Shown: positions 5,615 to 9,956 of the stretch, in pieces
Numbering within the stretch: the stretch's first letter is position 1
How the letters are laid out: every line of letters begins with the position of its first letter
Assembly (NCBI GenBank): GCA_002421585.1
Contig: DIKD01000006.1
Span: forward strand, 1-26,904
Source of the DNA: Dehalococcoidia bacterium UBA5627
GTDB lineage: Bacteria > Chloroflexota > Dehalococcoidia > Dehalococcoidales > UBA5627
DNA: 26,904 nt
Reading direction: 5' to 3'
Translations under genes and position numbers: made by a program
The notes under the pieces: generated by a model
The model's input: only the letters and a program-made list of their open reading frames with translations
Database searches by the model: none
Told to the model about the DNA's origin: nothing

Positions 5615-5677
5615 ATCGGTTATTATAGCTGCAAGTTTTATAAAGCATTTCTTATAAAAAGCGAGGGGGATGGCTTC

Positions 5678-7369
5678 ATGGACAATAATATAGACAAAGA
5701 TAATGAACTGGATATTGATGTAGATTCCTCGATTGATGACATCACCAACCTGAAAAACAGTATTGAAGAATTAAACCAGAAAGCGGATGAAGCCAATAGG
5801 TTGGACAGGTCCTCACGTCTATCTGCCGATGAGGCAATTAAAATTGCAATAGAAATTGTGGAACAGGCAAGAAATATCAGTAAAAGCAGTAAAAAAATAA
5901 CTGATGAGGCGCGTAAAGCTTCTATGGAAGCAATAAAAAAAGCGGAGAAGGTAACAAAAGAAGCAGAATCCAGTGCAAAGGAATATAAACAGGCATTTGA
6001 AAGGGCTATTTCTGAAGCTGAAAAAAGAGCTAAGTGGGCAAAGGAAACCGCTGAAGAAGCAATATCATCTACACATGAAATTATTGATGAAGACGATAAA
6101 ATTGTTAAAGAAGCGCGGGGCACAGTAAAGGAAGCAGTAAAAGAAGCTAATAATGCGGCAAAAAGGAATGAAAAAACAGCAAAATCAGCCGAAGAAATGT
6201 CAGAAGCAGCCATAAAGTTGGCTCAGGAAGCTATGGTTACTGCGGAAGAAACTGAAAACAAAGTAAAATTTCATGTAGATGAAGCTATGCGAGTATCAAA
6301 CGAAGCCCTTAACACCGCAGCGGAAATAAAAAAATCCAGCCGGATACTGGACCTGGAAACAATGAAGGCACTGCAGGAAGCTACCGAAAAGGCTGAGAAT
6401 GCTAAAAAAGCTGCCGAAGAAACCAATAGGTCATATCAAAAGGCTTTTCTGGAAGCGATAAAATCCGTTGAGGAAACCAACATCTGGGCTAAAACCACTA
6501 CGGATAACGCTTTATTAAATTCTAAGGAAGCAATAGAAAAATCTCAGGAAACTGCAAATAAATCGGCTGAATTATCGAAAGAAGCCATGGAGTTGTCCAA
6601 AAAAGCCATTGAGACTGTTAATGAAGTATTATTGGAGTTAGAACAGAAGTCCGTAGAAATAAAAAACAAATCGGATGAGGTTATTTTAAAGGGAGAACAG
6701 GCAAAGAAAAAAACCATGGAAGCTGCTGAATCAGCTATTGCTGAATCAGAAAAAGCGGTTGACACGATTGAGCTTATCAGTGAATCGGCAAAAATAAGAA
6801 TTGAAGAGTGGGTTAATAATTCCAAGGTTGCCATAAACAGCGCTGAAGAAAACGCTTTATCAGCACAAAAAATGGCTGCAAAGGTACAGTTGGAAGCTAA
6901 AGAGGCGATTTCCAAGGCTGAGCAGTTATGCAGGTTGTCGCAAGAGGCTGCGGATGAAGCAATTAAGGCTTCAAAAGAAGCGGCTGAAGCGTCTAAAAGG
7001 GCTGCGAGTGAAGCCGGGGAAATGTGGGTTGATGTATTTAAAGGATTACTGGGTGAAACCACACGGGCGAGTCTATATGCTAAACAGACCGTAGAACAGA
7101 CATCTGATTTTGTACAGGACCCGTCACAGGAAGTTGAATTCGAGCATTCAAAGAATAAAAGAAAAGCTGTAGAAAGTAATCGCAATATTTCTGAACCTGT
7201 TGATGATAGTGAAAAAACTGTTAATGATACCATTGATGAAATAGAGGATGTGCCTTCGGTTTCAGAGTTTTCGGAGAATAAAGCTCCGGGAAAAGAATTC
7301 CAGGAGAAAACCAAAGACAGATTGGACTCTTTAACAAAAATGCTAATGTCCGATTCCGATGAAGAATAG
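5678..7369 (+). CDS. Ala/Glu/Lys-rich long alpha-helical (coiled-coil) protein with 150-aa internal repeats; function unknown
   Basis: SD GAGGGGG 8 nt before the ATG. About 400 aa of proline-free helical sequence lie between acidic N- and C-terminal regions. Confidence 0.85.
   Translation: MDNNIDKDNELDIDVDSSIDDITNLKNSIEELNQKADEANRLDRSSRLSADEAIKIAIEIVEQARNISKSSKKITDEARKASMEAIKKAEKVTKEAESSAKEYKQAFERAISEAEKRAKWAKETAEEAISSTHEIIDEDDKIVKEARGTVKEAVKEANNAAKRNEKTAKSAEEMSEAAIKLAQEAMVTAEETENKVKFHVDEAMRVSNEALNTAAEIKKSSRILDLETMKALQEATEKAENAKKAAEETNRSYQKAFLEAIKSVEETNIWAKTTTDNALLNSKEAIEKSQETANKSAELSKEAMELSKKAIETVNEVLLELEQKSVEIKNKSDEVILKGEQAKKKTMEAAESAIAESEKAVDTIELISESAKIRIEEWVNNSKVAINSAEENALSAQKMAAKVQLEAKEAISKAEQLCRLSQEAADEAIKASKEAAEASKRAASEAGEMWVDVFKGLLGETTRASLYAKQTVEQTSDFVQDPSQEVEFEHSKNKRKAVESNRNISEPVDDSEKTVNDTIDEIEDVPSVSEFSENKAPGKEFQEKTKDRLDSLTKMLMSDSDEE
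5828..7012 (+). repeat. Degenerate tandem repeat with 450-bp (150-aa) period, two full copies and one partial
   Basis: Y103/Y253, F107/F257 and W120/W270 align without gaps (TGG at 6035 and 6485). ISKSSK/IKKSSR/ISESAK lie at aa 67/217/367 and RAISEAE/EAIKSVE/EAISKAE at aa 109/259/409. Confidence 0.75.
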
Positions 7370-7382
7370 TACTTAGGAAAAT

Positions 7383-7413
7383 ATAATGCCTTATCATTTT
7401 GATAAGGCATTAT
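7383..7413. terminator. Probable bidirectional intrinsic terminator between convergent genes
   Basis: Perfect 14-bp inverted repeat ATAATGCCTTATCA-ttt-TGATAAGGCATTAT with short T-rich tails on both strands. Confidence 0.75.
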
Positions 7414-7438: not shown

Positions 7439-8611
7439 TTAGAACAGCGACGGAATATCCTTGAACGATTCTTCTATACCGCGATGGTCCCAGTCGATGC
7501 CGCCCTGCCTCTTCTTCGAGTTAGCAATGTATTCGATAGTTCTGGCAAAGTAATCCACCACTCTCTTGGAGTTAACCAGTTCGGAAAGAATCACAGTAAT
7601 ATCAATCATCCCTTTTCCTCTGGGGTAGTCACCGCTCCTGATTATTGCTTCGGTCGCCATCCCTTTAAGATCTCCGGATAATTCCTTTATCACATCCATA
7701 CTCATTGCGTCATGAGGACCCGTTGCTAAATATAAAGCTCTTCTGGCGTTGTTAGGATTGCATTTTAGAGATAAATCCCCAAGAGCTTCGGTCATTGCTT
7801 TTGTACCCTGCTCATTCTGGGCATCCTTATCTCTGAAATCGGTACTTTTGCCAAAAGGAATTCTAAAACCGGAAAGATCTTCTTTTCCATAACCTATTAC
7901 AGTCCAGCCGGATAGTGTTTGTATAATATCACCTGCATCAAGAACTTTTGAACCTATATACTTAGGCTGCGTTTCTTCACCGGCACATAACAAGTTATAA
8001 AACGGCCTGACAACCATATAATTAATTTTCGATAGATTATTTTTTAAGGAAACATTTTTCTTTATGAATCTCTGGTTATCTACTAAAAAGATAGCGTCTG
8101 CCGCAAGATATGTGGATTTAAGGCACGTTCCTACATTATAAATGGACCGACCTTCCGTAAGTTCCTCGTATTGGAAAGGAAGGACAACCATGTTATAGAC
8201 AGGTTTATCGTATCTCTCTTTAATTAAATGAGTTAACACGGATATCGCCCCGGAGCCGGTACCGCCTGCTGCAGAAGCTATTAGAAGAATAGCATCGGTT
8301 TCCGCAAATTTATCGGTGCCTCTGATGCTGTCTATTACTTTATCGCCGTCTTCGTTGGCGATATCAGCACCGACTTCATTCAGCTTACCGACCCCATGTC
8401 CGCCTGTTTTCTTGGCGCCGATAAGTATTCTATGGCGGAAGTCCGATTTAATATTAACAAGGCCGCTCAGGTCAGCTACATCTGTATTAACGGCAATAAC
8501 ATTGGTCAGTATATTTAAACCGCGCTGCGTATGCGCGACTTTACCCAAACGTGCGAACTCATCGGCAATTCTGCCTCCGCATTGTCCGCATCCTATAACA
8601 AGCAATTTCAT
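7439..8611 (-). CDS. Tubulin/FtsZ-superfamily GTPase of the CetZ-like (non-canonical FtsZ) type
   Basis: GCGQCGGRIAD, AVNTDVADL, GHGVGKLNEVGA, AAGGTGSG signature, FLVDNQ, LLCAGE, VLDAGDIIQTLSG. No FtsZ-type linker and C-terminal core peptide. SD AGGGGGG. Confidence 0.85.
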   Translation of the reverse strand: MKLLVIGCGQCGGRIADEFARLGKVAHTQRGLNILTNVIAVNTDVADLSGLVNIKSDFRHRILIGAKKTGGHGVGKLNEVGADIANEDGDKVIDSIRGTDKFAETDAILLIASAAGGTGSGAISVLTHLIKERYDKPVYNMVVLPFQYEELTEGRSIYNVGTCLKSTYLAADAIFLVDNQRFIKKNVSLKNNLSKINYMVVRPFYNLLCAGEETQPKYIGSKVLDAGDIIQTLSGWTVIGYGKEDLSGFRIPFGKSTDFRDKDAQNEQGTKAMTEALGDLSLKCNPNNARRALYLATGPHDAMSMDVIKELSGDLKGMATEAIIRSGDYPRGKGMIDITVILSELVNSKRVVDYFARTIEYIANSKKRQGGIDWDHRGIEESFKDIPSLF

Positions 8612-8702: not shown

Positions 8703-8730
8703 ATTGTATATAAATAACACCGGTTGTCAA
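8703..8730 (-). promoter_or_regulatory. Sigma70-type promoter for the CetZ-like gene
   Basis: Minus strand TTGACA (8730-8725, overlapping the upstream gene's stop), 16-nt spacer, TACAAT (8708-8703). Confidence 0.55.
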
Positions 8731-9956
8731 TGGTTCTCATAAAGGTTATGTAAATCGTCAAGATTTTTAATTCCCGAGGTTAGCTCTATAAAATCCCTAA
8801 CATCACCGGAACGGTCCCTTAAATCCCATAGCATATCTCCAATAGGGTTAACTGATGACGGACCACTGGCATATGTTCCGTAAAAAGCAAAATATGCCTG
8901 ATTGAGTCGCCGTATGTAATAACCGTTGGAAAGGATATACAACCTTCTTTCTTCCATATAGGCTTCGGCTTTTTCAATTTCCCCTTCCGCAAGATAATTG
9001 TCGACCGTAATGCGGATATTTCTCATTTCTTCATAATAATCAAAGTCATTACTTTCCGTATAAACAAAGATATTTTCTTTAAAATAAGAGGCATAATAGT
9101 TTTGATAAACCGTAGAGGCGATTTCATCACTGACAATGCCTGCTATCGTTTCATTTATTGTTGATATATGGCTGTCTTCATATATTCCCAGCAGGTTAAA
9201 TGCATATAAAAAACCTGTAGGCTTAAAAAACAAATATTGATGAAACCATTCCTCGATTGCTGTGTCTAGCGTGAATTCCAGCCCTGCATTGTTGGTAACA
9301 AACGAGGGAAAGGTAGCCATACCCCCTACTCTTAATACAATTGAAGAATATCCGAGTTCGTCTATTTCCGTTTCTATTTGAGTTATTTCATCAATAGTTA
9401 AATCCTGAACCAGAATTATTTCCCTCATCCGGTATATGTCATCTTTGGGTGACACAATTAAAAGATGCGGGGGGGATTCCAGCGAAAAATTAATAGGTGG
9501 AAATGGTATGTCAATTCCGATAATATCATTATATAAATATAAATCCAGTTGTTTTAATGTTTCTCTGATTTGCAGTTCAATTATTTTTTCCACCTTTTTC
9601 TTTTTGGATTCTCTGTCCTGCTTTAAAATATTCAATTGTTTTTGCATAGAAGATAATTCATCATTATCAATCTGGTCTTTATAATATAATATTTGAAACT
9701 CCAATGACGATATTTCTTCCAGTAAACTGAAAAAATCTACAACAAAACGGGGATCGTCGATTTTATAATCGTTATCGCCAAAGATAACCTGTTCTATTTC
9801 CGCTGTTAAAGTCCTGATTTCCCATTCAAATATGCTGAAACGATAAGGATTAATTATATTATTCAATGAACGGTCAAAATCATTTGCTGTTTGGCAGGAA
9901 CCAAACAATATACAAGCAATGAATAAAACTGAGCTAATAAGTACCTTGATTTTCAT
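8727..9956 (-). CDS. Putative lipoprotein, distant zincin/aminopeptidase-like protein with EExxH motif
   Basis: Signal peptide with lipobox-like LFGSC; AIEEWFHQYL followed by INETIAGIV, then RLNQAYFAFYGTY. Confidence 0.7.
   Translation of the reverse strand: MKIKVLISSVLFIACILFGSCQTANDFDRSLNNIINPYRFSIFEWEIRTLTAEIEQVIFGDNDYKIDDPRFVVDFFSLLEEISSLEFQILYYKDQIDNDELSSMQKQLNILKQDRESKKKKVEKIIELQIRETLKQLDLYLYNDIIGIDIPFPPINFSLESPPHLLIVSPKDDIYRMREIILVQDLTIDEITQIETEIDELGYSSIVLRVGGMATFPSFVTNNAGLEFTLDTAIEEWFHQYLFFKPTGFLYAFNLLGIYEDSHISTINETIAGIVSDEIASTVYQNYYASYFKENIFVYTESNDFDYYEEMRNIRITVDNYLAEGEIEKAEAYMEERRLYILSNGYYIRRLNQAYFAFYGTYASGPSSVNPIGDMLWDLRDRSGDVRDFIELTSGIKNLDDLHNLYENH

Follow-up and report, generated by a model that had tools for sequence, protein, structure and literature searches.

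The question raised by this locus is what kind of protein is encoded at positions 5678 to 7369 of a 26,904-nucleotide stretch of contig DIKD01000006.1 (assembly GCA_002421585.1, Dehalococcoidia bacterium UBA5627, of the order Dehalococcoidales), and how it relates to the tubulin-superfamily protein encoded tail to tail with it. The whole stretch is here called the window, and the 563-residue protein P0001. An earlier note, made from the letters alone, had described it as a helical protein of no recognisable family built on an exact 150-residue period, and had proposed that such a unit fixes the axial stagger of a filament, ruler or scaffold. The reading that we favour, with a probability of about 0.55, is that P0001 would be a coiled-coil scaffold and would serve one Dehalococcoidales clade of CetZ-like tubulins as a dedicated partner; in broader terms, its family most likely represents a bacterial coiled-coil-rich scaffold, tied here to a CetZ-type tubulin. 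The two genes concerned are:

5678..7369, plus strand: coding sequence of the coiled-coil repeat protein P0001 (563 residues, isoelectric point 4.8, 62 kDa), as judged by its orthologues and by the ratio of nonsynonymous to synonymous substitution rates (dN/dS)
7439..8611, minus strand: convergent gene of the CetZ-like tubulin-superfamily GTPase P0002 (390 residues), with Tubulin (PF00091, 3e-31) and CetZ_C (PF21011, 9.7e-19) domains in Pfam

Orthologues of P0001 are present in 10 of the 11 genomes of the window's genus, at 56-87% identity, and the rod that makes up most of the protein evolves with a dN/dS of 0.118 (against an orthologue 66% identical; the L001-L003 values were used), so that P0001 can be taken as a real, constrained protein under purifying selection. 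Wherever it occurs in the genus, the gene converges on a CetZ gene (in the window, 72 bp separate its end from the stop codon of the CetZ gene), as it does in each other family that has it, of which there are more than a dozen, and across the Dehalococcoidales, in fact, this convergent pair is kept while all other neighbours turn over. Besides FtsZ, each genome of the order encodes several CetZ-like paralogues. When 71 CetZ-like proteins were placed in a tree, the 25 that have a coiled-coil gene at their 3' end all fell into one clade with 100/99 support, the adjacency label needing 3 changes on that tree vs 20.9 in shuffles, and the other CetZ paralogue clades never adjoin a coiled-coil gene. 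A second sample of 201 genomes, evenly drawn from the class and overlapping the first set in three, gave a similar picture: 13 genomes hold the family, each with the gene convergent beside its best-scoring CetZ (at least 622 bits with the adjacent-clade profile), and it is absent from the 21 genomes whose CetZ-like genes all score lower. Likewise, no full family member was found in the nine genomes, G007 included, whose CetZ all lie outside the clade. G007 belongs to the window's genus and is 98% complete; both the coiled-coil gene and its CetZ clade are missing from it and the other paralogues are kept, one of them with an in-frame TAG (G007:C49:76917-78086). The pair is also found in cultured Dehalococcoides mccartyi, where the partner is an unannotated 441-residue gene and the linked CetZ is named either "Tubulin-like protein CetZ" or FtsZ in public sources. 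The gene divergent from that CetZ in D. mccartyi (L078/L080:2051-3817) encodes a 588-residue SMC_N/AAA_23 protein, and is not conserved at this place in other families.

The protein itself can be divided into the following parts, all encoded on the plus strand:

5678..5752: acidic variable head, residues 1-25, net charge -8, probably disordered
5753..7027: rod, residues 26-450, made of 17 gap-free units of 25 residues (7+7+11), as seen from lag statistics, Fourier analysis and a single phase
5828..6052: block A, units 2-4, residues 51-125, holding a "YFW unit" (Y103-x3-F107 ... W120)
6278..6502: block B, units 8-10, residues 201-275, a duplicate of block A at +150 (Y253, F257, W270)
7010..7054: conserved rod-end motif E-A-x-x-x-W-[IV]-x-V-F-x-E-L-L, here GEMWVDVFKGLLG, residues 445-459
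7118..7291: acidic linker, residues 481-538, predicted to be disordered, variable in sequence and length (column identity 0.36-0.6)
7292..7366: conserved C-terminal amphipathic helix and acidic tail, residues 539-563, here with RLDSLTKML

The self-likeness reported by the earlier note is real. Residues 51-200 and 201-350 align without indels, with 42 identities in 150 positions (33 of them within the first 86), the pairs Y103/Y253, F107/F257 and W120/W270 are where they were said to be, and the peak at lag 150 has a z of 9.9 against a maximum of 4.7 at any lag in 2000 composition shuffles. What did not stand is the period drawn from it, as 150 is a harmonic of a shorter unit. In the same test lags 25, 75 and 50 reached z values of 9.8, 9.75 and 9.6, and because lags 25, 50, 75, 100, 125, 175 and 225 (z 7.7-9.8) are about as significant as lag 150, the base unit must be 25 residues. 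Stacking P0001 in rows of 25 gives 17 units (residues 26-450) with a clear consensus, and the resulting profile holds one phase across residues 11-470. The Fourier spectrum of hydrophobicity accordingly has a single sharp peak at 3.570 residues, that is 25/7, with a power of 557 vs a shuffle maximum of 116. Apolar residues occupy positions 3/4, 7, 10/11, 14, 17/18, 21 and 24/25 of the unit, in the order heptad, heptad, hendecad; small residues (Ala/Ser) sit at core positions 3, 7, 10, 14, 18, 21 and 25, flanked by Ile, Leu, Val or Met at positions 4, 11, 17 and 24.

An additional layer appeared once the common 25-residue profile was subtracted from the unit profiles of the ten genus orthologues. 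Only an offset of six units then had a positive residual correlation (p = 0.006; 0.064 when corrected for nine offsets), and this signal came only from units 2-4 against units 8-10, being strongest between units 4 and 10 (r = 0.41); these two were also the best of all non-overlapping pairs of three-unit blocks (permutation p = 0.0027). Because only units 2-4 and 8-10 keep a specific likeness, the unit profiles argue for a single event, in which one old block of 75 residues (51-125) was duplicated to residues 201-275. Across 11 orthologues Y103, F107, Y253 and F257 never change and W120 hardly ever does, and the YFW landmark (Y-x3-F-x2-A-x(8-10)-[W/F/Y]) occurs twice in the window's genus and once in several families, D. 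mccartyi's included. A third, partial copy that had been proposed from residue 351 onwards is indeed in register; such register, however, comes from the shared 25-residue frame, and the block-specific signal is absent there. We read the 150-residue likeness as a side effect of the 25-residue frame combined with one duplicated 75-residue block carrying the YFW landmark. The idea that a 150-residue unit fixes an axial stagger is not supported, as the unit is of 25 residues, the 150 reflects one block duplication, and there is no long-range charge periodicity: net-charge periodicity in P0001 is weak or absent at both 25 and 12.5 residues. Long-range charge periodicity drives staggered assembly in myosin rods, and a myosin-like charge stagger was rejected for P0001 on this ground.

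The rod is free of proline, as had been claimed (Pro is found only at 482, 507, 526 and 537), and the glycines of residues 26-450 are limited to G148, G339 and G447. The mixture of 7- and 11-residue spacings that the earlier note had seen also holds, the 25-residue unit being 7+7+11. A canonical heptad coiled coil, with a hydrophobic period of 3.5 residues, is therefore not what the rod represents, since the lone peak is at 3.570 and the power at 3.53 equals background; in the broader sense that admits mixed heptads and hendecads, on the other hand, it has the features of a coiled coil, with an amphipathic helix that is continuous, an apolar stripe that is conserved, and indels that preserve phase. 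Mean column identity is 0.81 in the core vs 0.73 at the surface, and highest at the small-residue core positions. When the 25-residue phase was tracked through 14 family members, register shifts between them were nearly all of +11 or -11 residues, and as such indels preserve the hydrophobic phase of the helix, they would be tolerated by a continuous coiled coil. A member from another family, for instance, differs by one 11-residue deletion from the ten genus orthologues, which align gap-free over ~440 residues. One row (L002) of the alignment used here (A1) starts one residue late and may include the stop codon, with negligible effect on the profile and on structure prediction. P0001 is acidic (isoelectric point 4.8), and both a signal peptide and a membrane span are absent; on balance we regard it as a cytoplasmic, elongated coiled-coil protein.

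The segment EMWVDVFKGLLG, the acidic linker and the terminal helix pointed out in the earlier note are all present and conserved. In an AlphaFold2 (AF2) model of the last 134 residues (28-row alignment), the helix is predicted to extend to residue 480, followed by disorder from 481 to 538 and by a second helix at 539-560, with a predicted local distance difference test score (pLDDT) of 80-89. The rod-end motif is predicted to be helical both in this model and in that of the whole chain. A second conserved tryptophan, W378, lies exactly 72 residues before W450, and does so in most of the other members checked as well (L018, L019, L025, L024). Of 84 sequences and fragments of the family, 45 have its terminal-helix motif, R-L-[DE]-x-L-[AT]-[KR]-M-[YF], whose R and L do not vary in the 28-row alignment.

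With regard to family, searches of Pfam, NCBIfam, PHROG and the PDB gave no family match, so that the description of P0001 as a protein without recognisable family stands. The two known families that might have explained the repeat were both excluded at the sequence level: in 11 members no Pfam match to the chemoreceptor domain MCPsignal (PF00015) was seen at E <= 1, the matches to methyl-accepting chemotaxis proteins among PDB profiles having E values of 0.6-0.7, and phage tape-measure matches were absent from PHROG and Pfam, the context being chromosomal, beside CetZ. The family is rare: when 1.84 billion representative proteins were searched with its profile, only 67 matches were returned, mostly short C-terminal fragments, and the Atlas neighbours of the family are unnamed Chloroflexota clusters. 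A word-indexed protein collection gave no matches to the whole of P0001 or to residues 436-563; this collection seems to be without the family, and the result is thus uninformative on rarity. The family is missing there even where the gene was called on the contigs, possibly due to low-complexity filtering. All members share one plan, in which a repeat rod ending in W-x-x-V-F is followed by a variable acidic disordered linker, the R-L-[DE]-x-L-[AT]-[KR]-M-[YF] helix and an acidic tail, and P0001 has everything that defines the family: the rod of 25-residue repeats, the W-x-x-V-F end, the disordered linker, the terminal helix and a convergent CetZ of the one clade. What differs is length. The strict length conservation claimed by the earlier note is true within the genus, where ~440 residues are gap-free in 10 species, and fails across the family, whose rods range from ~340 residues in D. 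mccartyi to ~845 residues in versions of 900-910 residues (L081:1377-4079 and L082:1385-4117; family f10, genus g31, probably Dehalogenimonas) that carry the same rod-end and C-terminal motifs. Because of this range, the rod cannot be a universal ruler. A cytoskeletal or scaffold role, as part of what had been suggested, nonetheless remains plausible given the strict linkage to the CetZ gene.

Cells of the Dehalococcoidales lack a peptidoglycan wall and are disc-shaped. According to the reading that we favour, the stripe of Ala, Ser and Ile would hold P0001 rods together as oligomers, contact with CetZ polymers or their anchor would be made by the tethered C-terminal helix or by the conserved rod ends, and P0001 might in this way bundle, space or tether the CetZ cytoskeleton under the membrane of these cells. 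A more specific and rather tentative version is a two-part cytoskeleton, composed of the CetZ polymer and of a 25-residue-repeat rod docked onto it via the terminal helix, in which the genus-specific and indel-free rod length could set the spacing or the curvature of CetZ at the rim of the disc. If so, CetZ proteins would have in this rod their first defined structural partner, and bacteria a counterpart to the microtubule-associated crosslinkers.

Several points weigh against P0001 being such a partner. The tie between P0001 and CetZ is one of genes, and because these genes are convergent and not co-transcribed, their arrangement does not imply co-regulation. Three CetZ genes inside the clade (in G017, G021 and G023) have no coiled-coil copy adjacent to them; in G021 and G023 a copy is present on another short contig, and none was found in G017, a genome that is 84% complete. 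The genomes compared are also related to each other, so that the co-occurrence counts are descriptive, overstate the support, and do not amount to a statistical test. The AF2 model of the monomer (11-row alignment), which predicts a helix from residue 18 to 457 with one short break, is low in confidence, with a pLDDT of 57 and a predicted template modelling score (pTM) of 0.19. Lastly, 25 helical residues span ~37 Å vs the ~43-44 Å that roughly separate subunits in protofilaments of the FtsZ/CetZ type, and a tropomyosin-like lattice with one unit per CetZ subunit was rejected because of this mismatch. Prediction of a complex between CetZ (23 rows) and the C-terminal 134 residues (28 rows) gave scores of 0.05, 0.43 and 0.10 against a mark of 0.32, and was used neither way.

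Among the other explanations, the one that survives best, albeit as an unlikely one, sees P0001 by analogy as a self-assembling protein of the intermediate-filament kind, whose filaments would form by lateral and head-to-tail contacts between rod ends, and which would, as crescentin, FilP and Scy exemplify, be cytoskeletal and serve the same process as CetZ (cell shape) without binding it. The head-rod-tail plan with conserved motifs at both rod ends, the long and uninterrupted non-heptad coiled coil, and a rod length strictly conserved inside the genus would all suit such a protein; the long-range charge periodicity that should set its stagger is however absent, the tethered and conserved terminal helix resembles a docking peptide more than a filament contact, and a merely shared process does not usually produce so strict a joint presence and joint absence with one CetZ clade. 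The probability that we assign to a folded-back P0001 is lower still. Here the chain would form a long antiparallel helical bundle, comparable to EzrA, to spectrin-like repeats or to chemoreceptor-like hairpins, with turns near residues 190 and 343 and arms of ~150 residues, acting as a compact regulator of CetZ assembly, and the AF2 monomer does break its helix at 189-195, with zones of low confidence (175-198 and 331-354) that are ~150 residues apart. The midpoint between the YFW blocks (about residue 186) coincides with the first break, where an antiparallel fold might pair Y/F with W, and small-residue (Ala/Ser) cores like that of P0001 are typical of tightly packed antiparallel bundles. 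Nevertheless, the confidence of that model is low, single coiled-coil chains are often folded back by AF2, the 25-residue phase continues across both putative turns without a break, no Gly/Pro-rich loops are present (G148, G339 and G447 being the only glycines of the rod), many relatives have one YFW unit instead of two, and rod length varies ~2.5-fold. Very improbable, finally, is a non-cytoskeletal, hydrophilic amphipathic-helix protein, be it a phasin-, late embryogenesis abundant (LEA)- or apolipoprotein-like surface coating or a stress protein, placed beside CetZ by historical accident. In its favour are only weak compositional likenesses (Phasin_2, PF09361, is found on 12% of the members of one Atlas neighbour cluster and has no match at E <= 1 in 11 members of the family; ApoLp-III and Alanine_zipper match single members at E 0.017-0.023). 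Against it, no such match reaches the family threshold, and the linkage to one CetZ clade outlasts full neighbour turnover and includes co-loss.

Three more features of the window concern the expression of the P0001 gene:

5493..5565, minus strand: tRNA-Lys(CTT), found with ARAGORN
5663..5669, plus strand: Shine-Dalgarno-like GAGGGGG, 8 nt 5' of the ATG at 5678, read from the sequence
7383..7413, either strand: bidirectional intrinsic terminator of the two convergent genes, a hairpin with a perfect 14-bp inverted repeat and T-runs on either strand

The tRNA gene stands between the P0001 gene and an upstream histidine kinase and LuxR-type regulator, and because it lies on the opposite strand and splits P0001 from these two-component genes, P0001 forms its own transcription unit. 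Two antisense open reading frames (ORFs) on the minus strand (5638-6213 and 6544-7410) overlap the gene, and we infer that they are by-products of its biased codon content. A search of public sequencing runs listed one hydrocarbon-metagenome DNA run and no RNA run, and therefore provides no evidence on P0001 expression. Upstream of the CetZ gene, on its same strand, positions 8727-9956 encode a predicted lipoprotein of 409 residues with no Pfam family, whose gene is conserved at CetZ only in the window's genus and in one other family.

The order has three main clades of CetZ-like paralogues, and nearly all of their proteins terminate in D-[IV]-P-[ST]-L-L, as seen at 7439-8611 of the window and in the paralogues G000:C90:13336-14502 and G000:C37:3847-4899, whereas N-[IL]-P takes its place in a small divergent clade. 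Such an end is reminiscent, by analogy, of the C-terminal peptide of FtsZ. The coiled-coil-linked clade differs only in the segment just before it. In many other families of the order, the space between the coiled-coil gene and CetZ holds a second small helical ORF of 141-189 residues, which runs in the direction of the coiled-coil gene and carries the motif A-Y-x-A-Y-x-E-A-Q-K-E-V-A and a terminal Q-A-W-K-I-F:

L028:5019-5459, L025:2400-2876, L024:6860-7315, L026:5056-5577, L023:4934-5359, L030:5768-6337 and L051:3912-4466: small helical ORFs

The search of 40 related genomes found it in 14 of them (and in 14 of the 29 other families); it was not seen in the window's genus (11 genomes), nor in G014, G018, G020, G026 and G029. 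Homology of this small family with that of P0001 was not demonstrated, the hhalign probability being 7%.

CetZ proteins are known for their part in the shape and motility of archaeal cells, and their occurrence in bacteria has barely been noted in the literature. As the gene most tightly linked to one bacterial CetZ clade, the P0001 family provides a first candidate for a CetZ-associated protein, and since the pair exists in a cultured species, D. mccartyi, the idea of a CetZ partner can be tested. As a natural 7+7+11 coiled coil the rod is also unusually clean, with one phase over ~460 residues and evolutionary indels in steps of 11, and could be useful for understanding and designing non-heptad coiled coils. 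What is new here is the 25-residue anatomy, the rule of +/-11 residues, the terminal motifs, the clade test, and the presence of a genus without the second small helical gene.

Compared to known systems, the analogy with Scy and FilP of Streptomyces, drawn by the earlier note, is apt in that these are also bacterial, cytoplasmic, long non-heptad coiled coils with a short head and tail and a proposed scaffold role, in which regularly inserted hendecads bring the residues per turn above 3.5. The analogy fails on the period. The repeat unit of Scy, known as a "penindecad", has 51 residues vs the 25 of P0001 (7+7+11; 3.571 per turn), and a lag of 51 is outside the 25 highest-scoring lags of P0001, at the top of which are 25 and its multiples. 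No sequence relationship to Scy or FilP was detected in the libraries searched, and these proteins work with DivIVA at hyphal tips, while the P0001 family is tied to a tubulin-superfamily gene. Crescentin and intermediate-filament-like proteins share with P0001 the head-rod-tail plan, the conserved rod ends and a possible role in cell shape; unlike crescentin, however, the rod of P0001 is strictly periodic and has neither linkers nor segment breaks, and its tail consists of a tethered conserved helix with an acidic end.

As for CetZ, no binding partner of a CetZ-like protein is described in the literature searched, nor was a coiled coil of 25-residue repeats found there. CetZ-like proteins have been listed for Chloroflexota-Dehalococcoidia by Santana-Molina et al. 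2023 (PMC9871819), who reported that unknown genes beside divergent archaeal tubulin-like genes often encode coiled-coil regions; those neighbours, however, are archaeal and described as mutually unrelated, and the Dehalococcoidales repeat family, the 25-residue unit and the linkage to a clade are absent from that work. Nor does such a coiled-coil partner appear in a survey of the neighbourhoods of archaeal cetZ genes (PMC9856176). In the proteome of D. mccartyi, the tubulin-like protein btf_0551 was more abundant in disc- than in barrel-shaped cells (PMC8163811); judged by position, btf_0551 is probably the other CetZ paralogue of this species, with no coiled-coil gene nearby.

A further comparison is with the coiled-coil or helical-bundle partners of tubulin-family filaments, such as ZapB, EzrA and SepF (partners of FtsZ), TubY (of TubZ) and PRC1-like proteins (of tubulin). 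P0001 shows no homology to them in Pfam, NCBIfam or the PDB, and is far longer and more regular, but like them it is helical, non-enzymatic and genetically tied to a polymer of the tubulin superfamily. A short terminal helix on a flexible linker is, in fact, the usual docking mode of tubulin-family partners, and P0001 has one.

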